This document shows, in pieces, positions 3,744-33,232 of a DNA stretch of 64,000 nt (the first letter of the stretch is position 1; each line of letters starts with the position of its first letter). Source of the DNA: Escherichia phage HK3. The stretch lies in the sequence record PP526765; one strand, 5' to 3'. A model generated the notes under the pieces. The model made no database searches and was not told the origin of the DNA. It saw nothing but the letters and a program-made list of their open reading frames with translations. The position numbers and the translations under genes are program-made.

Positions 3744-4208
3744 TTACTTTGGGTATACACTGTCAAGATAAATGTCAGCTTCCATTCTACGTCTGTTTTT
3801 CAGACCGTTTGAAGTGACCTTCTTACCTTTGACCGTAACCTTGTTCCACCACTGCATAGCTTCTGCACAACCGCCCTTATTACCAGCGTTGTGGCGCTTG
3901 ATAAATGTGGAGTCCTGCATAGCTGTGATGCCGATGTTGTATGTTTCACTTACAAGTGCATCGAACTCATTCTGAGAAGTTGGAACCTTGATAGCTTTAT
4001 TCACTGCTGCAACGAACTTCTCAACATCTGCGAGAAGATACTGTTCAGCTTGTTCAGCAGTAATTTTCATACCCATCTTAACAGGTTTTCCGTCCATACG
4101 GATTGTACCATACCCGATTGTCGGGATTCCGGCAGAATCTTCGTAAGCCTCTAACTTCAGACCTTCAAAGAACTTAATAGCTTCTAAACCTTTTCTTGAG
4201 AGTTGCAT
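3744..4208 (-). CDS. endolysin, GH24 (T4/lambda-type) lysozyme
   Basis: FEGLKLEAYEDSAGIPTIGYGT catalytic E/D/T signature typical of phage lysozymes; 154 aa. Confidence 0.85.
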   Translation of the reverse strand: MQLSRKGLEAIKFFEGLKLEAYEDSAGIPTIGYGTIRMDGKPVKMGMKITAEQAEQYLLADVEKFVAAVNKAIKVPTSQNEFDALVSETYNIGITAMQDSTFIKRHNAGNKGGCAEAMQWWNKVTVKGKKVTSNGLKNRRRMEADIYLDSVYPK

Positions 4209-8497: not shown

Positions 8498-8574
8498 CTC
8501 TGTTTAGCTCAGCTTGGTAGAGCGTTCCGTTTGGGGCGGTAAGGCCGGAGGTTCAAGTCCTCCAACAGAGACCA
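8498..8574 (+). tRNA. tRNA-Pro (anticodon UGG)
   Basis: manual fold: acceptor CTCTGTT/AACAGAG, D-loop AGCTTGGTA, anticodon loop TTTGGGG, T-arm GGAGG-TTCAAGT-CCTCC, encoded CCA. Confidence 0.75.
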
Positions 8575-8581
8575 AATTAAT

Positions 8582-8659
8582 GTTCCAGTAGACAAAATGG
8601 TATAGTCACCACTCTTTCAAAGTGGATATTTGAGGGTTCAAATCCCTTCTGGAACGCCA
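8582..8659 (+). tRNA. tRNA-Glu (anticodon UUC)
   Basis: manual fold: acceptor GTTCCAG/CTGGAAC, anticodon stem CCACT/AGTGG loop CTTTCAA, T-loop TTCAAAT, CCA. Confidence 0.7.
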
Positions 8660-8666
8660 GTTTTGA

Positions 8667-8740
8667 CAGAAGACCAATTACAGCAAACTTAATCTTATTC
8701 ATCTGAAGGTAAATCGGACAAAGAAGAGATTTGGTCTGGT
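8667..8740 (+). ncRNA. inter-tRNA structured element a (conserved terminal helix)
   Basis: 5' CAGAAGACCAATTACAGCAA ... 3' TTGGTCTGG; terminal 7-bp helix AGACCAA/TTGGTCT. Confidence 0.45.
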
Positions 8741-8750
8741 CATTAAGAAT

Positions 8751-8827
8751 TGCGGGTATAGAGAAAGGGCGTCTCACATGTCTCATTAGCATGGTATCGG
8801 CAGGTTCGACTCCTGCACCCGCCTCCA
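8751..8827 (+). tRNA. tRNA-Met (anticodon CAU; 1:72 mismatch)
   Basis: manual fold: anticodon stem CATGT/GCATG loop CTCATTA, T-arm GCAGG-TTCGACT-CCTGC, acceptor TGCGGGT/ACCCGCC with U1xC72 mismatch, CCA. Confidence 0.6.
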
Positions 8828-8833
8828 AATTTA

Positions 8834-8897
8834 CAGAAGACCGTTTACAGCAATATTTATTAAATTTTTAGCGGAAAAATTGAAAGATACGGTCTGG
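8834..8897 (+). ncRNA. inter-tRNA structured element b
   Basis: 5' CAGAAGACCGTTTACAGCAA ... 3' ACGGTCTGG; helix AGACCGT/ACGGTCT (compensatory to element a); internal hairpin AATTTTT-AGCGG-AAAAATT. Confidence 0.45.
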
Positions 8898-8910
8898 TAA
8901 TACTAAACAT

Positions 8911-8987
8911 GGTTAGGAAGCACATAAGGTATGTGCGGTCGCCTGTTAAGCGAATGGCACAGGGTTCGAATCCCTGACTAACCGCCA
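8911..8987 (+). tRNA. tRNA-Asn (anticodon GUU)
   Basis: manual fold: acceptor GGTTAGG/ACTAACC, anticodon loop CTGTTAA, T-arm CAGGG-TTCGAAT-CCCTG, CCA. Confidence 0.7.
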
Positions 8988-9058
8988 AATTTAGGAGAGA
9001 AGCGATTGCTCACCGATTTGTAAGGTGCAAGTCCTTAGCCTGAATAGAATAATAAAAT

Positions 9059-9145
9059 GTGTCGTTATCCCGTAGATGGTAGCGGTGGGGACTGTAAATC
9101 CCTTGTCATTGAGACTCGGTAGGTTCGACTCCTACACGGCACACC
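9059..9145 (+). tRNA. tRNA-Tyr (anticodon GUA), long variable arm
   Basis: manual fold: acceptor GTGTCGT/ACGGCAC, anticodon stem GGGGA/TCCCT loop CTGTAAA, 15-nt variable arm, T-arm GTAGG-TTCGACT-CCTAC, CCA. Confidence 0.7.
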
Positions 9146-9207
9146 AATTTTGAGAGGGCTATTTAGCCCCTCCCTTAAAGAGTTCTTACGAGTACCCTTT
9201 AAAGGAG

Positions 9208-9281
9208 CAGAAGACCAAATACAGCAAGTTACTTAAAATTTCAAGCCAATTCAATTTTGAAAAATTTAAAACTTGGTCTGG
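9208..9281 (+). ncRNA. inter-tRNA structured element c
   Basis: 5' CAGAAGACCAAATACAGCAA ... 3' TTGGTCTGG; same terminal helix. Confidence 0.45.
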
Positions 9282-9294
9282 CTCAACAAATTTA

Positions 9295-9425
9295 CAGAAG
9301 ACCGTTTACAGCAAAACTTAAACAATCTATTTCTCGGTAAAGAAAAGGTGAAGGTTCGATTCCTTCACTCGGCAGATGTCGAGTTGGTGTAATGGTAGCA
9401 CTTAAGATGATAAACAACGGTCTGG
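9295..9425 (+). ncRNA. candidate Y-RNA-like (YrlA-like) RNA: terminal helix enclosing circularly permuted tRNA-like domain
   Basis: 5' CAGAAGACCGTTTACAGCAA ... 3' ACGGTCTGG helix; inside: T-arm GTGAAGG-TTCGATT-CCTTCAC (9348-9368), closed acceptor-like hairpin ACTCGGC-AGAT-GTCGAGT (9367-9384), D-arm GTGT-AATGGTA-GCAC (9387-9401); no anticodon arm. Confidence 0.5.
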
Positions 9426-9576
9426 TAATTATCTTTGCAGTAGCTTATGTGGCTAATTATATCGTCCCATGAGTGCCGATGAATTTCCTTAGCATGATTC
9501 TAGATTAGCTTAATAGGAAATGACTCTACAGACCCTTTAGCAAGGTCTGCGTAGGTTACTGCAAAGATAATTTAAT

Positions 9577-9652
9577 AGAAGTGTAGCAGAATGGTGATGC
9601 GGCAGACTTTTAATCTGATAGGTGATGGGTTCGAATCCCTCCACTTCTACCA
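9577..9652 (+). tRNA. tRNA-Lys (anticodon UUU)
   Basis: manual fold: acceptor AGAAGTG/CACTTCT, anticodon stem GCAGA/TCTGA loop CTTTTAA, CCA; T-stem weak (3 bp); homologous to Lys-CUU gene with compensatory changes. Confidence 0.6.
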
Positions 9653-9656
9653 ATAT

Positions 9657-9733
9657 GGTTCAGTCGCAGATAAGGTAATGCAGGGGTCTCATAAGCCCTA
9701 TGAATGTGGGTTCGATTCCCATCTGAGCCTCCA
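9657..9733 (+). tRNA. tRNA with anticodon CAU (Met or Ile-lysidine type)
   Basis: manual fold: acceptor GGTTCAG/CTGAGCC, anticodon stem GGGGT/GCCCT loop CTCATAA, T-arm GTGGG-TTCGATT-CCCAT, CCA. Confidence 0.65.
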
Positions 9734-9735
9734 AT

Positions 9736-9811
9736 GCTGTGAAAGCACATATGGATGTGCATTCGGCTGATAACCGAAAGGAAGAAGGTTCGAATCCTTC
9801 TCACAGTACCA
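9736..9811 (+). tRNA. tRNA-Ile (anticodon GAU)
   Basis: manual fold: acceptor GCTGTGA/TCACAGT, D-arm GCAC-ATATGGAT-GTGC, anticodon stem TTCGG/CCGAA loop CTGATAA, T-arm GAAGG-TTCGAAT-CCTTC, CCA. Confidence 0.8.
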
Positions 9812-9826
9812 ATTTCAATAAAGTTG

Positions 9827-9855
9827 TTGACATTGAGATGTGACCACTTTATAGT
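9827..9855 (+). promoter_or_regulatory. sigma70-like promoter (TTGACA-17-TATAGT) internal to tRNA region
   Basis: TTGACA 9827-9832, TATAGT 9850-9855. Confidence 0.6.
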
Positions 9856-10058
9856 AACCTTAGTTTTCGTTGCGTAGCGTCTATTTTGCAAATTTAAAAT
9901 AAATGCAAACGACAATGTTTTTCTGGCAGTAGCTTGATAGGCTAAACACCAGTGAGGTCTTCCAATCCCTCATCAAAGAATTTGGCGTACTAGCCCACGG
10001 TATGATTAATAAGGTGGGCATCTTTAAGGGTTTTTTAAGAGAGTCTTTAAAGATTAAT

Positions 10059-10135
10059 GCACCCTTAGTTCAACTGGACAGAACAAATGACTTCTAATCA
10101 TTAGGTTACAGGTTCGAATCCTGTAGGGTGTGCCA
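10059..10135 (+). tRNA. tRNA-Arg (anticodon UCU)
   Basis: manual fold: acceptor GCACCCT/AGGGTGT, D-arm GTTC-AACTGGACA-GAAC, anticodon stem AATGA/TCATT loop CTTCTAA, T-arm ACAGG-TTCGAAT-CCTGT, CCA. Confidence 0.8.
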
Positions 10136-10277
10136 AATAGTTAGCAGATTGCTTAGACGACCTTATCGGGTCTCCGTGTAGGGAGGTGGTCTGTATCTCA
10201 TGTTTTCCAGAACATGTAAATAATCTGAGAAGGGGCTTTACAGTGTTGAGATAATACGGTAAGCTTCGAATTATAGT

Positions 10278-10360
10278 ATGGGACGATGTTAAGACTCTAA
10301 GGCATGAGCAACGGCTTCCAACACCGTTTCAAAGGGATTCAACTCCTCCGTCCCATGCCA
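10278..10360 (+). tRNA. atypical tRNA-like gene (possible tRNA-Trp, anticodon CCA) with extra nucleotides between acceptor and D-arm
   Basis: perfect 7-bp acceptor ATGGGAC/GTCCCAT + G + CCA; anticodon-like loop TTCCAAC; D-region 8 nt longer than canonical; weak T-stem. Confidence 0.3.
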
Positions 10361-10373
10361 AAGTCTTATTAGG

Positions 10374-10461
10374 GGTAGGTAGCGGCTAATGGTAGCCAAA
10401 CTGTCTTGAAAACAGTTGCCACTGTAGAGATACGGTGAGGGTTCGACTCCTTTACTTACCG
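10374..10461 (+). tRNA. tRNA-Ser (anticodon UGA), long variable arm
   Basis: manual fold: acceptor GGTAGGT/ACTTACC, anticodon stem ACTGT/ACAGT loop CTTGAAA, about 20-nt variable arm, T-arm GAGGG-TTCGACT-CCTTT. Confidence 0.7.
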
Positions 10462-10617
10462 CCTAATAAGATTTAAAGCCAAGCTTCATTCGGATGTTGC
10501 TTTGGTATCCCTCGTGTATTGTCGTACACACTGATAAAGCACCTAGTAGGTGTCACGGAGAAGAGATAATATCAAGCTCTCCAAAGGTTCTAGTCACCGG
10601 ATTAAACAAGACTATGC

Positions 10618-10639
10618 AAAGACCTGTTTAGGTCTTTTT
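10618..10639 (+). terminator. terminator-like hairpin within tRNA region
   Basis: AAAGACC-TGTTTA-GGTCTTT followed by TTT. Confidence 0.3.
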
Positions 10640-10718
10640 AGAGGGCTTCTAAGGTTATTACAGCTTGTTGTGGAACCTTGTTGCTTAGGTTCTTAGAAGT
10701 TCTCTAAAAAGATTTAAT

Positions 10719-10795
10719 GCACCTATAGCCCAACTGGTAGAGGCAGCAGACTTAGAATCTGCTCAGTGTGAGTTCGAATCTCTCTAGGTGTACCA
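10719..10795 (+). tRNA. tRNA with anticodon UAG (Leu by code) but short variable arm
   Basis: manual fold: acceptor GCACCTA/TAGGTGT, anticodon stem GCAGA/TCTGC loop CTTAGAA, 5-nt variable loop, T-loop TTCGAAT, A73, CCA. Confidence 0.55.
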
Positions 10796-10802
10796 AATTA
10801 AT

Positions 10803-10878
10803 GCAGGTGTAGCAAAATGGTTATGCGGCTGACTCTTAATCAGTAAGACGATGGTTTCAATTCCCTCCACCTGTACCA
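10803..10878 (+). tRNA. tRNA-Lys (anticodon CUU)
   Basis: manual fold: acceptor GCAGGTG/CACCTGT, anticodon stem GCTGA/TCAGT loop CTCTTAA, CCA; paralog of Lys-UUU with compensatory stem changes. Confidence 0.6.
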
Positions 10879-10884
10879 GACATT

Positions 10885-10960
10885 GGGGATGTAGTTTACA
10901 TGGTTAAAACATAAGTTTTGCAAACTTAAGTACAGGGTTCAATTCCCTGCTTCTCCACCA
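10885..10960 (+). tRNA. tRNA-Ala (anticodon UGC)
   Basis: manual fold: acceptor GGGGATG/CTTCTCC with G3-U70 wobble (Ala identity), D-arm GTTT-ACATGGTTA-AAAC, anticodon stem TAAGT/ACTTA loop TTTGCAA, T-arm CAGGG-TTCAATT-CCCTG, CCA. Confidence 0.7.
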
Positions 10961-10966
10961 ATTAGT

Positions 10967-11041
10967 GCATCCATAGTTTAAACGGGAAAATTACAGTCTT
11001 CCAAACTGAGGTTGAGGGTTCGATTCCCTCTGGATGCTCCA
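10967..11041 (+). tRNA. tRNA-Gly (anticodon UCC)
   Basis: manual fold: acceptor GCATCCA/TGGATGC, anticodon loop CTTCCAA, T-arm GAGGG-TTCGATT-CCCTC, CCA. Confidence 0.7.
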
Positions 11042-11047
11042 AATAAT

Positions 11048-11124
11048 GCTGCTTTCGTATAATTGGCTATTACACATCCCTTGTAAGGATGGAAATGCAG
11101 GTTCGAGTCCTGTGAGCAGCACCA
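11048..11124 (+). tRNA. tRNA-Thr (anticodon UGU)
   Basis: manual fold: acceptor GCTGCTT/GAGCAGC, anticodon stem CATCC/GGATG loop CTTGTAA, T-arm GCAGG-TTCGAGT-CCTGT, CCA. Confidence 0.75.
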
Positions 11125-11219
11125 ATTCAGAGGTCAAGTGAAAGACCGCTGGTGTCAACTGAAGACCGTAACAAATTCCACGGAGTTGAGTTAGCGGCAC
11201 AACTTCAGACCTCTTTCAT

Positions 11220-11294
11220 ACTCGCTTAGTTTATATGGTAAAACACCACCCTTACAAGATGAAGAAAAAGGTTCAAGTCCTTTAGTGAGTACCA
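11220..11294 (+). tRNA. tRNA-like gene, possible tRNA-Val (anticodon UAC); weak anticodon stem
   Basis: acceptor ACTCGCT/AGTGAGT, D-arm GTTT-ATATGGTA-AAAC, T-arm AAAGG-TTCAAGT-CCTTT, CCA; anticodon stem only 3/5 paired. Confidence 0.4.
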
Positions 11295-11295
11295 T

Positions 11296-11373
11296 GTTCC
11301 AATATCCCAATTGGCAGAGGATGCAAGCTCAAACCTTGTACTAGTGACGGTTCGAATCCGTCTTGGAACACCA
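11296..11373 (+). tRNA. tRNA with anticodon CAA (Leu by code) but short variable arm
   Basis: manual fold: acceptor GTTCCAA/TTGGAAC, Leu-like D-loop AATTGGCAGAG, anticodon stem GCAAG/CTTGT loop CTCAAAC, 6-nt variable loop, T-arm GACGG-TTCGAAT-CCGTC, A73, CCA. Confidence 0.55.
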
Positions 11374-11487
11374 ATTTTGGGAGAGCACTATGAGTGATAA
11401 GTCAATAGCAAAAAAGTTTAGAGCGTCATACCTAAACAGACGTAAAAACAAAGATTGTGAAAAACTGTATGGTGTTCTTGTAGGTAA

Positions 11488-11563
11488 GCAGGATTAGTTC
11501 AAATGGATAGAGCAGCAGTCTACGAAGCTGTTAATAGGGGTTCGAATCCCTTATCCTGCGCCA
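11488..11563 (+). tRNA. tRNA-Arg (anticodon ACG)
   Basis: manual fold: acceptor GCAGGAT/ATCCTGC, D-arm GTTC-AAATGGATA-GAGC, anticodon stem GCAGT/GCTGT loop CTACGAA, T-arm AGGGG-TTCGAAT-CCCTT, CCA. Confidence 0.75.
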
Positions 11564-11582
11564 ATTTTAAGAGGCTATTTAG

Positions 11583-12140
11583 ATGAGATATTTGAAGTAT
11601 GCTTCATGGATTTTCCTAGCTTTGTTAGACCCATTGGCAGCAACCTTAGCAGTTATCTTAGCACCTTTTGTAGTTCCATTCTACAGTGAGAAGAAAGGGC
11701 ACTTACCTTTCGGCTTCAGATGGATGGAGACATATGACAACCCAATTGATGGTGATAAAGGTCATGTTGAACGATGGGCTAAGATTAGAAAGATTGGTAA
11801 GCTTGGTGTCTATATGCAGAGAGTCGGTTGGCTCTGGAGAAACAAAGCTTATAACTTCTCTTACCATGTGTTAGGAAGAGATGTAAAAGATGTTACTAAG
11901 TGGAAAGGTAATATCAACGTAAGCTCTGACCCTGAAGATAATCAGACAGGTTATCTCCTAATGTGGAACAGTAATGCTTGGGGATTATTCGCTTTTATCC
12001 CATCAATTAAAGTCTTTGGTAAACAATTCTACTGGAGAATTTATATTGGGTGGAAACTAAAAAGTGTTGTCCCAGAAGAAAGAGCATTCTCAAGGGAAAG
12101 AGTTATGTTGGCATTCTTTATTCATCCACTGAGAAAGTAA
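11583..12140 (+). CDS. hypothetical membrane-anchored protein embedded in tRNA array
   Basis: 185 aa, ATG with AAGAGG upstream; N-terminal hydrophobic segment ASWIFLALLDPLAATLAVILAPFVVPF. Confidence 0.5.
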   Translation: MRYLKYASWIFLALLDPLAATLAVILAPFVVPFYSEKKGHLPFGFRWMETYDNPIDGDKGHVERWAKIRKIGKLGVYMQRVGWLWRNKAYNFSYHVLGRDVKDVTKWKGNINVSSDPEDNQTGYLLMWNSNAWGLFAFIPSIKVFGKQFYWRIYIGWKLKSVVPEERAFSRERVMLAFFIHPLRK

Positions 12141-12148
12141 AGATTTAA

Positions 12149-12224
12149 AGGGGATTAGTTTACAAGGTTAAAACCTCGGTCTTTGAAATCGAAGAAGTTG
12201 GTTCAATTCCAACATCCCCCGCCA
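12149..12224 (+). tRNA. tRNA-Gln (anticodon UUG)
   Basis: manual fold: acceptor AGGGGAT/ATCCCCC (A1xC72), D-arm GTTT-ACAAGGTTA-AAAC, anticodon stem TCGGT/ATCGA loop CTTTGAA, T-arm GTTGG-TTCAATT-CCAAC, CCA. Confidence 0.65.
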
Positions 12225-12226
12225 AT

Positions 12227-12305
12227 GCTCCATTACTCCAATTGGCAGAGAGGCCAGACTTAAAATCTGTGTTATGTATCGGTTCGAATCCGATATGGAG
12301 TACCA
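12227..12305 (+). tRNA. tRNA with anticodon UAA (Leu by code) but short variable arm
   Basis: manual fold: acceptor GCTCCAT/ATGGAGT, Leu-like D-loop AATTGGCAGAG, anticodon loop CTTAAAA, 7-nt variable loop, T-arm ATCGG-TTCGAAT-CCGAT, A73, CCA. Confidence 0.55.
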
Positions 12306-12310
12306 AATTT

Positions 12311-12386
12311 AGCGGTATAGCATAACTGGCAATGCAACAGTCTCTGAAGCTGTCTTATTAAGGTTCAAATCCTTATGCCGCTGCCA
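12311..12386 (+). tRNA. tRNA-Gln (anticodon CUG)
   Basis: manual fold: acceptor AGCGGTA/TGCCGCT, D-arm GCAT-AACTGGCA-ATGC, anticodon stem ACAGT/GCTGT loop CTCTGAA, T-arm TAAGG-TTCAAAT-CCTTA, CCA. Confidence 0.7.
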
Positions 12387-12417
12387 CTTCTAAGGATTCT
12401 TACGAGAGTCCTTAAAT

Positions 12418-12493
12418 GTGGCCTTATCATAAACGGTAATGACCCATGCTGTGAACATGGTCTATACGGGTTCAAATCCCGTAGGTCACCCCA
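12418..12493 (+). tRNA. tRNA-His (anticodon GUG)
   Basis: manual fold: acceptor GTGGCCT/AGGTCAC, D-arm TCAT-AAACGGTA-ATGA, anticodon stem CCATG/CATGG loop CTGTGAA, T-arm ACGGG-TTCAAAT-CCCGT, C73, CCA. Confidence 0.75.
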
Positions 12494-12498
12494 ATTTA

Positions 12499-12575
12499 TA
12501 GTCCAAGTAGCTTATATGGTTAAAGCGCGTGTCTGAAAAACATGAGAAGAGGGTTCAAATCCCACTGGATTACCA
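12499..12575 (+). tRNA. tRNA-Phe (anticodon GAA); acceptor/D junction atypical
   Basis: D-arm GCTT-ATATGGTTA-AAGC, anticodon stem CGTGT/ACATG loop CTGAAAA, T-loop TTCAAAT; acceptor TAGTCCA/TGGATTA leaves 4 nt before D-stem. Confidence 0.5.
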
Positions 12576-12591
12576 ATTTCAAAGGTGCTTA

Positions 12592-13326
12592 ATGAAAGAG
12601 ATGACAGAACAAGGTAAGGAGATTTTTAATCTCTTAAAAACTGGTAAAGGGTTTTCTAACCCCCTTATTACTGGTGCAGCAGTTCTCGGTGGAACCGTAG
12701 CTGCCTCTACATCACTTGTAAGCTCTATTAGCTCTGTAACAGACCCTACAATAAAGGATAAACTTATTGCTGCTGGACTTACAACAGTTCTGCTTAACAG
12801 CTTTACAACGAGTCTGACAAGCACTACAGCAACTACTAAGACCCTAACAGACTATGGTCAAAAATCTATTGATGAGTTTTCATCACGTATGCAGGTAGCA
12901 AAGGGATACTCCAATGTTATGGGTGCAGTAGGAGAACAAGTTGGTTGTACACCATTTAGTGGTATTATGGGTGTTGCTACAGAGTATGGTCAAAAAGCTA
13001 TGGATACAATTAACAGCACACTAGATGGCGTTAATGATGTATTAAGCGACTTACAGGATGCTATTGATAAAGGTCTTAATACTATTTCTGATTTAGCTAA
13101 CCAAGCTGTTAGTAAGATTAATGAAGGTATCTCAAAGATTACAGCTTATGCAGATGAAGTTGTGCAGATGATTGAAGAAGAAGCTGCCCTTATTGCAGAG
13201 TACCTTAAAACGAATATCAATGGGTTCTTAGCAGGTATCTTACCAGACTGGTTTGATGATGCTTGTAAAACTGGTGTGATTGACACTATTGCAACACCAG
13301 AAATGAAGAACGCATTACAGAAATAA
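12592..13326 (+). CDS. hypothetical Ser/Thr-rich protein
   Basis: ATG at 12592 with AAAGGTG upstream (track ORF from 12529 would overlap tRNA-Phe); 244 aa. Confidence 0.5.
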   Translation: MKEMTEQGKEIFNLLKTGKGFSNPLITGAAVLGGTVAASTSLVSSISSVTDPTIKDKLIAAGLTTVLLNSFTTSLTSTTATTKTLTDYGQKSIDEFSSRMQVAKGYSNVMGAVGEQVGCTPFSGIMGVATEYGQKAMDTINSTLDGVNDVLSDLQDAIDKGLNTISDLANQAVSKINEGISKITAYADEVVQMIEEEAALIAEYLKTNINGFLAGILPDWFDDACKTGVIDTIATPEMKNALQK

Positions 13327-13327
13327 C

Positions 13328-13420
13328 GGAAGATTAACCCTAAAAGGTAAGGGAGCAGTTTGCTAAACTGCCAGTAGCTGAGAAATCGGTGTACCAGTTC
13401 AAGTCTGGTATCTTCCTCCA
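13328..13420 (+). tRNA. tRNA-Ser (anticodon GCU), long variable arm
   Basis: manual fold: acceptor GGAAGAT/ATCTTCC, anticodon stem GCAGT/ACTGC loop TTGCTAA, long variable arm, T-arm ACCAG-TTCAAGT-CTGGT, CCA. Confidence 0.7.
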
Positions 13421-13424
13421 ATTT

Positions 13425-13500
13425 GAATCCGTGACAGAAATGGCTATGTACCTGTCTGCAAAACAGGTTTATAAGGGTTCGAGTCCCTTCGGATTCTCCA
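13425..13500 (+). tRNA. tRNA-Cys (anticodon GCA)
   Basis: manual fold: acceptor GAATCCG/CGGATTC, anticodon stem CCTGT/ACAGG loop CTGCAAA, T-arm AAGGG-TTCGAGT-CCCTT, U73 (Cys identity), CCA. Confidence 0.75.
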
Positions 13501-17529: not shown

Positions 17530-17861
17530 TGGGAACATTAACTATTGATGGTAAGAATAAAATCCTCGCCACGCTAACCCCAACGACTATTATTTTACAC
17601 AATGTAGACCCAACGGCAGACCCTACAGCAAATAAGGTTACTCAGCCAGTGGCTATTTATTTTTCTGAACCGGATAATGGCTTGATTGCCTCAGAAGACA
17701 CAGTTAATATTACTGTCCCAGCTTCTGCAACGGTCTCACACTATAGCTTGTGGGATGCTAACGATAAATGCGTGGCAACTGGTGCTCTTAGCAAACCTCA
17801 ATTCTTTGCTGAAGAAGGTATCTATGTTATCTCTTCAGTCTCTGTAGATTTAAACAAATAG
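17529..17861 (+). CDS. hypothetical protein (head module)
   Basis: 110-aa ORF, ATGA overlap with upstream gene. Confidence 0.45.
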   Translation: MGTLTIDGKNKILATLTPTTIILHNVDPTADPTANKVTQPVAIYFSEPDNGLIASEDTVNITVPASATVSHYSLWDANDKCVATGALSKPQFFAEEGIYVISSVSVDLNK

Positions 17862-22672: not shown

Positions 22673-24025
22673 ATGTGGAATCCAATTGTTAATGTAGATA
22701 TTACATTGAACACCGCAGGAACTACAAGAGAAGGTTTTGGTTTGCCACTATTCTTAGCTTCAACAGATAACTTTGAAGAAAGAGTTCGTGGTTACACTTC
22801 CTTAACTGAAGTTGCTGAAGATTTCGATGAGAAGTCTGCTGCATATAAGGCTGCTAAACAACTTTGGAGTCAAACTCCTAAAGTAACTCAGCTTTATATT
22901 GGTAGACGTGCTATGCAGTACACTGTGTCAATTCCTGACTCTGTTACTGAAAGTACCGATTATTCTTTAACTGTAGCTGTGGGCGGTGGAGTTTCTCAAC
23001 CATACCAGTACACATCAAAAAGCTCAGACACTGCTGAGAAGGTGTTACAGCAGCTTAAAACACAGATTGAAGCTGACCCAGCAATTAAAGATAAAGTTTC
23101 TGTGAATGTAACTGGTAGCAATGCTTCTGCCACAATGATTATTACCAAAGCTGGTGATAATGACTTTGTGAAAGTAACAACTACAGCGCATACTGTGTAT
23201 GTTGCAAGCACAACTGCTGATACAGCATCAACTGCTCTGGCAGCCATCGAAGCTTATTCTACCGACTGGTATTTCATTGCAGCAGAAGATAGAACTCAAC
23301 AGTTTGTCTTAGCAATGGCTTCTGAGATTCAGGCTCGTAAGAAAATATTCTTCACTGCTAACTCTGATGTAGCAGCACTGCAAGGCACAGAATTAAACAG
23401 TGCAAATGATGTTCCAGCACAGCTTGCTAAGAGTATGTACACCCGCACAGTTTGCTTGTGGCATCACACAGCAGCAGAAGACTATCCAGAGATGGCATAC
23501 ATTGCTTATGGCGCTCCGTATGATGCAGGTTCAATTGCTTGGGGCAATGCTCAGTTGACTGGTGTAGCTGCTTCTCTACAGCCAGCTAATAAGAGACCTC
23601 TGACAAGTATTCAGAAGTCAGCTTTAGATGCACGTCACTGTAACTTTATTGACCTTGATGGTGGTGTTCCAGTGGTTCGTAGAGGGATTACTTCTGGTGG
23701 GGAATGGATTGATATCATCCGTGGTGTTGACTGGTTAGAATCAGACCTGAAAACTTCTCTGAGAGACTTGCTAATTAACCAGAAGGGTGGTAAGATTACT
23801 TATGATGATACTGGTATTACTCGTATTCGTCAAGTCATTGAAACCTCTCTACAAAGAGCAGTCAACAGAAACTTCCTGTCATCTTACACAGTTAATGTTC
23901 CTAAAGCCTCTCAAGTTGCTTTAGCAGACAAGAAAGCTCGTATCCTGAAAGACGTTACCTTCGCAGGTATCTTAGCAGGTGCTATCTTGGATGTTGACTT
24001 GAAAGGTACAGTGGCTTACGAATAA
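22673..24025 (+). CDS. tail sheath protein
   Basis: 450 aa; followed by about 150-aa tube gene, chaperone pair and tape measure, the canonical contractile-tail order. Confidence 0.65.
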   Translation: MWNPIVNVDITLNTAGTTREGFGLPLFLASTDNFEERVRGYTSLTEVAEDFDEKSAAYKAAKQLWSQTPKVTQLYIGRRAMQYTVSIPDSVTESTDYSLTVAVGGGVSQPYQYTSKSSDTAEKVLQQLKTQIEADPAIKDKVSVNVTGSNASATMIITKAGDNDFVKVTTTAHTVYVASTTADTASTALAAIEAYSTDWYFIAAEDRTQQFVLAMASEIQARKKIFFTANSDVAALQGTELNSANDVPAQLAKSMYTRTVCLWHHTAAEDYPEMAYIAYGAPYDAGSIAWGNAQLTGVAASLQPANKRPLTSIQKSALDARHCNFIDLDGGVPVVRRGITSGGEWIDIIRGVDWLESDLKTSLRDLLINQKGGKITYDDTGITRIRQVIETSLQRAVNRNFLSSYTVNVPKASQVALADKKARILKDVTFAGILAGAILDVDLKGTVAYE

Positions 24026-24040
24026 TAGAGGTAAATTGGA

Positions 24041-24487
24041 ATGGCTATGTATCAGCAATATTCCCCTAAAGACGTTGTATGTAGCTGGAACGGCATTGCT
24101 ATTGAAGGCTTTGCTCCAGATTCATTCTTGCGTCTACAGAGAACATCACCACTTATCACACCAGTTGTAGGTGCAGGTGGTCAAGTTGCTCTGACAAGAA
24201 ATGCAGACAAGACAGGTACTATTGAGATTGAGCTAATGCAGACTTCTCTCTCTAATCAGATGCTTTCTGCAATTCAAGCTAAACAAGACAATATGGAACT
24301 TGAAGAAGATATCTCTTCTAACTTCGTAATCTACGACCCATCAGGCTCTGTTCTGGCAACTGGTATTAATGCTTGGTTGCAGGAACTACCACAGATTGAA
24401 CTTGGTCGTGACCAGAACTCTAAAACTTGGATTTTTGGTTGTGAGAAGCTAGACTACACTTCTACAATTCCAGCGTCAAGTGTTTAA
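24041..24487 (+). CDS. tail tube protein
   Basis: 148 aa directly after sheath gene. Confidence 0.6.
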   Translation: MAMYQQYSPKDVVCSWNGIAIEGFAPDSFLRLQRTSPLITPVVGAGGQVALTRNADKTGTIEIELMQTSLSNQMLSAIQAKQDNMELEEDISSNFVIYDPSGSVLATGINAWLQELPQIELGRDQNSKTWIFGCEKLDYTSTIPASSV

Positions 24488-24499
24488 TAAATCCTATAA

Positions 24500-24531
24500 G
24501 GGGGAGACTTTAAAAGGTCTTCCCCTTTTTT
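24500..24531 (+). terminator. rho-independent terminator after sheath/tube genes
   Basis: GGGGGAGAC-TTTAAAAG-GTCTTCCCC followed by TTTTTT. Confidence 0.7.
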
Positions 24532-24560
24532 GTTTCTTTTAAAAGTATTAAGGAATCACA

Positions 24561-24959
24561 ATGAAAACAGAATCTAGAGTAATTAATGGTAAGAAAGTAA
24601 ATATCATTCTGCTTGGGGCAAGAGATGGTATTAAGATGTCTATGAAGTTGGGTAAAATTGTTGTTCCAACTTTTGCACAGATGCTATCAAGTCTGACGGA
24701 TAAAGATAAGAAAGAGGCTCCAATGGTTCCATTTAAAGAACTTGTTGAAGCTTGTTTTGACAGAATTGAGGAAATTAACCTAGAAGAAATGGCTACCCTG
24801 CTATTTCAAGGGGCAACTGTTGATGACTTCCCACTTAATATTGATACATACTTCCAAGCAAACTATGGTGAATTTATTGATTACTTAGCATTTGCGCTGG
24901 AGGCAAACTTCGGAAGTTTTTTCGAAGCAAGCATTTTCAAAAGCCTAACTTCTCAGTAA
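24561..24959 (+). CDS. tail assembly chaperone (G-like)
   Basis: 132 aa between tube and tape measure; contains slippery heptamer near 3' end. Confidence 0.55.
   Translation: MKTESRVINGKKVNIILLGARDGIKMSMKLGKIVVPTFAQMLSSLTDKDKKEAPMVPFKELVEACFDRIEEINLEEMATLLFQGATVDDFPLNIDTYFQANYGEFIDYLAFALEANFGSFFEASIFKSLTSQ
24917..24923 (+). other. candidate -1 programmed frameshift slippery site T_TTT_TTC
   Basis: heptamer in zero frame of 24561..24959 (codons AGT TTT TTC); -1 frame is open through 24962..25201 ORF. Confidence 0.5.
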
Positions 24960-24961
24960 AC

Positions 24962-25200
24962 ATGGGTAACACTCTACAGACACCACTGACTGATGCTGCT
25001 GTAGAGTCAACCTATGAAGAAGCAGACGAGATGAAATTTGTGCTTGCTATTTATGGTATGGAAGGGTGTAAAGAAACACTTGACCAACTCTTTGCTATGA
25101 CATTCTCTGATTTATTATCATTGAGACAATTTCTTGAAATTCAGAGGTCGTATAAAGAGGAAATTGCTTACAACGAACTTAGAAGAGCAGGAAAAATGTA

Positions 25201-25201
<1 letters not shown>
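24962..25201 (+). CDS. tail assembly chaperone extension (GT-like; probably expressed as frameshift fusion)
   Basis: 79-aa ORF in -1 frame relative to upstream chaperone; located immediately before tape measure gene. Confidence 0.5.

Positions 25202-33232
<8,031 letters not shown>

Follow-up and report, generated by a model that had tools for sequence, protein, structure and literature searches.

In the Escherichia phage HK3 sequence, the tail-assembly chaperone gene G and the open frame behind it, T, very probably encode two chaperones, G and GT, from one start codon, through a programmed -1 ribosomal frameshift at the heptamer T_TTT_TTC. The slip, how often it occurs and the roles of the two products as chaperones are inferred from the anatomy of the locus in a 64,000-nt stretch of sequence record PP526765 (hereafter, the window) and from its conservation among related phages. 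By its sequence features, the site is a regular case of the conserved class of tail-chaperone frameshifts (G/GT type, Xu, Hendrix and Duda 2004). It is not new: records of close relatives already annotate the frameshift at this junction.

Anatomy of the locus

The window comes from a Felixounavirus, a Felix O1-type myophage, and the 1.4-kb region is 98-99% identical to that of many Salmonella, Escherichia and Shigella phages. The genes are arranged in the order sheath, tube, G, T and tape measure (Table 1), so that both G and T sit between the tube gene and the tape-measure gene. G matches the Pfam family PF21822 (Phage_TAC_15) with 70.9 bits against a cut-off of 22, and its residues 9-124 align to profile positions 1-124 of 127. 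A sequence search of the PDB gave no significant match, and an AlphaFold model of the fusion, run without an alignment, had a pLDDT of 33 and was unusable.

Table 1 Features of the G-T locus and its neighbours in the window
Feature	Position	Strand	Basis
Tail sheath gene	22673-24025	+	phrog_205 tail sheath, E=7e-124
Tail tube-type virion protein gene, upstream of G	24041-24487	+	Pfam KPP10_Orf10; phrog_280
G, tail assembly (tape-measure) chaperone, 132 aa, zero-frame product	24561-24959	+	PF21822 E=1.9e-19; phrog_1613 E=7e-49
Internal Shine-Dalgarno (SD)-like GGAGG, candidate 5' stimulator	24899-24903	+	13 nt upstream of heptamer; family enrichment
Nearly invariant island AGTTTTTTCGAnGCAAGCwTTTTCAAAArCC	24915-24945	+	alignment; heptamer plus 22 nt downstream; dual-coding stretch
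Slippery heptamer T_TTT_TTC	24917-24923	+	frame check; conservation; two tRNA-Phe proposed to slip by -1 in tandem
-1 frame extension (T part), 92 codons plus stop	24923-25201	+	open frame; phrog_4963 E=6e-55; includes 79-aa ORF 24962-25201
Candidate structured RNA domain, 123 nt, tentative	24926-25048	+	MFE fold z = -2.2; RNAalifold
Tape measure protein gene, 747 aa	25201-27444	+	phrog_4036 1512 bits; Pfam TMP_3

The preliminary description had placed T_TTT_TTC in the zero frame of the chaperone ORF, 36 nt before its stop, and had described the -1 frame as open through the 79-aa ORF up to the start of the tape measure gene. The frame check bears out both statements. Counted from the ORF start at 24561, the TTTTTTC run falls on the zero-frame codons agT TTT TTC (S F F) and is phased as T_TTT_TTC; 36 nt separate the last base of the heptamer from the end of the TAA stop of G (24957-24959). 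In the -1 frame, no stop interrupts the stretch from 24881 to a TAA at 25199-25201, which overlaps the ATG at 25201. The two frames share a 79-nt overlap, inside which T_TTT_TTC is the sole X_XXY_YYZ heptamer, and the +1 frame at the 3' end of G is closed by many stops. The same description had predicted a fusion of about 214 aa. The fusion itself holds, but its size was off by one, as the predicted GT protein has 213 aa (121 + 92 residues).

The heptamer stands out within the window. In the 71 long ORFs, in-frame heptamers with Y = A or T occur at 44 of 17,758 codon positions (0.25%), and the chance of finding at least one in the 26-codon overlap is about 6%. Among those 44 heptamers, T_TTT_TTC alone opens a long -1 frame, of 92 codons; the runner-up opens 28. 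Two heptamers elsewhere in the window, C_CCA_AAG at 3753 (- strand) and T_TTA_AAC at 17849 (+ strand), are in frame and lie at most one codon from the stop of their own ORF. With -1 extensions of just 3-4 codons, they are almost certainly incidental.

Several other features were noted around the locus. The T-frame stop overlaps the tape-measure start in the sequence TAATG at 25199-25203, an overlap that is kept in close genera and suggests translational coupling; only frame-shifted ribosomes would terminate there, while G-frame ribosomes stop 242 nt upstream. Between the tube gene and G, at 24498-24527, a strong 13-bp hairpin is followed by a T run. This feature resembles an intrinsic terminator, and the records of phages Meda and Mijalis label it as one; with such a site, G/GT/TMP would be transcribed less than sheath and tube. 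The window also carries 25 tRNA genes clustered at 8498-13500 on the + strand, with a tRNA-Phe (GAA) at 12500-12575 that would decode the slip site. A special role for this phage tRNA was considered and set aside, as nothing points there and its anticodon GAA is ordinary.

Proposed mechanism

We propose that a minority of the ribosomes translating G arrive at agT TTT TTC with their P and A sites each occupied by tRNA-Phe, and that the two tRNAs then move back by one base to pair with TTT TTT. Decoding would then resume at CGA (24923) in the -1 frame and continue to the TAA that ends T, which would yield the GT fusion beside the more abundant G. If the products act like lambda G/GT and P2 E/E+E', the tape measure protein encoded directly downstream would be coated by G and by the G part of GT, and the T part would recruit the tube protein. 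The G:GT ratio would be set by a fixed slip frequency. The upstream GGAGG likely contributes by pairing with the anti-SD of the translating ribosome across its 13-nt spacer, and a long-range 3' helix may add to the stimulation. In Escherichia coli, U_UU.U_UU.C belongs to the efficient H_HH.U_UU.Y class and shifts at more than 0.1% without a stimulator (PMC4066793).

Conservation of the slip site

Two sets of loci were compared. The first contains 38 related loci from GenBank and IMG/VR, including Mooglevirus, Kolesnikvirus (phiEa21-4), Yersinia phage P778 and the unclassified contig L036. The second contains 49 distant loci from IMG/VR that belong to the same Pfam family at 25-50% identity. 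The heptamer is invariant and lies within the overlap in all 38 related loci, even where the G proteins are just 39-47% identical. The -1 frame of Yersinia phage P778 becomes open just one codon ahead of the heptamer, after a TAA two codons before the slip codons, and the overlap, of 40 nt, begins at the heptamer. Among the distant loci, T_TTT_TTN is found at the homologous S-F-F codons in 47 of 49. Because of this conservation in both sets, a chance origin of the heptamer is untenable on the comparative evidence.

Other properties of the distant family agree with a recoding site. The -1 ORF extends 19-93 aa past the G stop in all 49 loci, and the +1 frame is short. The codon preceding TTT always ends in T despite changes of the amino acid (AGT 42, TCT 1, ACT 1, GAT 1), and at the level of codons this is the pattern expected under selection on a tandem-slippage site. 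The two distant loci without the T run (L093 and L100), which have SLF or SIF for SFF, show a G_GGA_AAA heptamer three codons further downstream and some 60-70 nt ahead of the G stop. A few distant members hold both T_TTT_TTT and lambda's G_GGA_AAG. The slip site appears to have moved in the course of evolution. Three contigs (L077, L090 and L104) were also seen to combine the T run with GGGAAAG or AAAGGGT. With its invariant slip codon, T-ending preceding codon and replacement heptamer, the family-wide picture is a textbook example of selection on a recoding site. The conserved G/GT arrangement claimed in the preliminary description is thus supported by comparison across homologues, with all of its sequence-level features present.

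Natural in-frame G-T fusions were not found. An exhaustive HMMER search recovered 198 representative clusters of the chaperone family, nearly all of 120-200 aa, and none of the 198 is such a fusion. When the fusion was used as the query of a homologue search, only G proteins of 124-136 aa were returned, again with no natural in-frame fusion.

Alternative readings of the locus

The T run could in principle act during transcription, with RNA polymerase dropping one U (or adding two) in the T6 run, and some of the mRNAs would then encode GT by standard translation. Such a process would fit the homopolymer at the site, which is 6, 7 or 8 T long among family members, the discussion of UUUUUUU as a slippage-prone sequence (PMC4066793) and the weak terminator-like hairpin at 24897-24913 that precedes the run. 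However, transcriptional slippage is efficient in bacteria at runs of 9 A or T (PMC5009743), and the six T of the window, like the 6-8 T across the family, fall short of the run of about 9 or more A/T that characterizes its programmed form. The two members with G_GGA_AAA use a classical site of ribosomal slippage that contains no long homopolymer, other members hold T_TTT_TTT together with G_GGA_AAG, and an SD-like element is enriched at a spacing typical of ribosomal -1 shifts. We favor ribosomal over transcriptional slippage because the replacement sites are heteropolymeric, and we consider the transcriptional route very unlikely.

Even less probable is the reading in which G and T are two independent genes, with the 79-aa ORF at 24962-25201 translated from its own ATG and the heptamer incidental. 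An ATG is indeed present at 24962, the two ORFs are separate CDS in most GenBank and RefSeq records of the group, including RefSeq JH2, and one in-frame heptamer would turn up in the overlap by chance with a probability of about 6%. Yet the heptamer is kept throughout both sets of loci, with the two exceptions described, and no Shine-Dalgarno sequence precedes the ATG at 24962 in the window. Kolesnikvirus, L036 and P778 lack an ATG close to the 5' end of the T frame; their first candidate T starts lie 48-177 nt past the heptamer, inside the conserved T domain. In addition, conservation of the -1 frame peptide RSKHFQKP begins at the heptamer, upstream of any ATG. Because the SD is missing, nearby starts are lacking in these three lineages and the -1 peptide is conserved from the heptamer, T is predicted to be reachable only via G. 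The presence of HFQKPNFSVNMGNTLQTPLTDAAVESTYEEADEMK, or of a peptide across the GSFF/RSKHF junction, would indicate -1 decoding upstream of ATG 24962.

A shift at some other point of the 79-nt overlap, such as the slippage of one tRNA on the U_UUC tetramer in the likewise conserved stretch 24934-24938, has next to no probability: U_UU.C is the second most shift-prone tetramer in Escherichia coli when a strong stimulator is given, but it is about ten-fold weaker than the best heptamers and needs that stimulator (PMC4066793), none is evident in the window, and the tetramer, unlike the heptamer, is not kept in the wider family. The junction peptide would tell the two sites apart, FFRSKHF pointing to the heptamer and FFEASIFQKP to the tetramer.

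Shine-Dalgarno-like element upstream of the slip site

Programmed -1 frameshifting at T_TTT_TTC may be assisted from the 5' side. An SD-like element is found 11-13 nt upstream of the slip site in 36 of 45 distinct family contexts, against a background of 6.6%. In the window the element is GGAGG, a sequence that occurs only 10 times on the + strand of the 64 kb, and its 13-nt spacer falls within the 9-14 nt reported for SD-stimulated -1 shifts (PMC5009743). The Glu codon that forms the element is GAG in 21 of 26 cases and GAA in 5, compared with a GAG share of 38% in the rest of these loci (p about 1e-5, uncorrected for phylogeny). The element is not essential, since it is missing in Kolesnikvirus, P778, L036 and two other family loci (L074 and L071). 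As a candidate stimulator, it would offer a simple handle on the setting of the G:GT ratio in a therapeutically used phage group.

RNA structure and the conserved island downstream

A downstream stimulatory structure, which the preliminary description had suggested as a check, was not found in its canonical form. Folds of the 52 nt and 87 nt that follow the heptamer do not improve on those of shuffled sequences (z = +0.97 and -0.53), no stem-loop or pseudoknot of the dnaX type starts 5-9 nt 3' of the heptamer, and an Rfam scan of 24500-25400 returned only a chance-level match (E = 0.62). On the 5' side, the hairpin at 24897-24913, flagged as terminator-like, was rejected as an element because its GAA/TTC pairing follows from the conserved E-x-N-F codons.

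At longer range, a candidate structured domain was found in the close clade of Felixounavirus, Suspvirus and Mooglevirus. Its outer 14-bp helix pairs 24926-24939 with 25032-25048 and begins 2 nt past the heptamer, and its apical hairpin pairs 24972-24986 with 24992-25006. RNAalifold on 9 close-clade sequences, which represent few independent lineages, gave 38 pairs, 5 of them with a compensatory change. In the close-clade alignment of this domain, 98% of cells are paired, and the covariation score was reached by none of 500 shuffles. As a universal stimulator, the long-range helix was rejected: P778, L036 and Kolesnikvirus lack its 3' arm UGCUUGCU and fold differently. It may be retained as a weakly supported candidate specific to the close clade.

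The hairpin at 24972-25006, formed by CUCUACAG...CUGUAGAG, lies inside the T coding region and shows compensatory synonymous changes between Felixounavirus and Mooglevirus/Suspvirus (A-U to G-C, C-G to A-U). It is not a canonical stimulator, because it is 48 nt from the slip site.

The heptamer and the 22 nt that follow it form a nearly invariant island (Table 1). Across 8 lineages, sliding nucleotide identity peaks at 0.85 at 24918-24947, compared with 0.48 over the whole G-T unit, and the island is the only segment of the query that blastn aligned to Erwinia (Kolesnikvirus) phages. A search of IMG/VR with the island DNA pattern returned only the same 31 contigs. Both encoded peptides are conserved, FFEASIFK in frame 0 and FFRSKHFQKP in frame -1. 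The island cannot be taken as proof of an RNA element. Dual coding is sufficient for it, because no position is synonymous in both of the conserved frames.

Taken together, it is possible, though doubtful, that the slip rate is tuned by two cis elements undescribed for phage chaperone frameshifts, namely the SD-like sequence 11-13 nt upstream in most of the PF21822 family and the RNA domain of about 123 nt in Felixounavirus, Suspvirus and Mooglevirus. The SD-less lineages would keep only the 3' island, which might act at the RNA level and not solely by dual coding.

Comparison with known frameshift systems

Apart from the annotated Felix O1-like phages treated below, a close known system is that of phage P2, the classical example with a contractile tail, in which a -1 shift at TTTTTTG between the tube gene FII and the tape-measure gene T yields E and E+E', with no downstream structure (PMC3091744). 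P2 and the window phage share a contractile tail, the order of sheath, tube, chaperone pair and tape measure, a T6-type heptamer and the lack of a downstream hairpin. They differ in the Z position of the heptamer, G in P2 and C in the window, and in the size of the products, 91 and 142 aa in P2 versus 132 and 213 aa in the window. The likeness is one of arrangement and slip site.

Lambda, a siphovirus, makes G and GT at the slip site G_GGA_AAG (Levin 1993; Xu, Hendrix and Duda 2004, 2013, 2014). Both the heptamer and the chaperone protein family of lambda differ from those of the window, and some distant PF21822 members use the lambda-like G_GGA_AAG or G_GGA_AAA. In lambda, neither product is found in virions, and their ratio matters (PMC5009743).

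Resemblance to the -1 shifts of Escherichia coli dnaX and IS elements is limited to the 5' side. In dnaX, a strong stem-loop stands a few nt downstream of the slip site, and about 50% of ribosomes shift. This stem-loop has no counterpart in the window, where local folds are no better than shuffles. The 5' SD stimulator of these systems, in contrast, is matched by the GGAGG of the window, whose position agrees with the 9-14 nt range (PMC5009743).

Existing annotation and its correction

The frameshift has been annotated in several relatives of the window phage. In Salmonella phage Meda, a Felixounavirus 97.7% identical to the window over the G-T region, and in Citrobacter phage Mijalis (Mooglevirus), the CDS is a two-piece join labelled as a tape measure chaperone frameshift product. 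When we built the fusion at the heptamer, the result was exactly the deposited protein for Meda (AXY86324.1) and for Citrobacter phages Moogle and Mijalis (YP_009145710.1 and ARB06563.1), and the same junction (…GSFF|RSKHF…) is deposited for Citrobacter phage Michonne (YP_009177317.1). The genes, heptamer and junction annotated in these four phages are those of the window, with no difference of substance. The window fusion differs from that of Meda at 3 of 213 residues and has no exact match in the protein collection. The frameshift is noted, with reference to Xu, Hendrix and Duda 2004, in the genome announcements of Moogle and Mijalis (PMC4319497, PMC5543628). In the literature searched, we found no protein-level or reporter evidence for Felix O1-like phages.

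The main value of the present analysis is therefore in annotation. In most of the approximately 250 Felixounavirus-type records, the 79-aa ORF stands as a separate CDS, and it should be joined to G via the predicted -1 shift at T_TTT_TTC. Other labels at the locus also vary among records. Some of them, such as that of Salmonella phage SUT_S820, wrongly call the 79-aa T ORF 'head closure protein'; in Escherichia phage C600M2 the same label is placed on G; and in phiEa21-4 the T region is left unannotated. One protein of 132 aa (WP_252560994.1) that shares the 90% cluster of the Felixounavirus chaperone is filed in NCBI under Staphylococcus hyicus, and probably reflects contamination of the Staphylococcus hyicus assembly by an enterobacterial phage.
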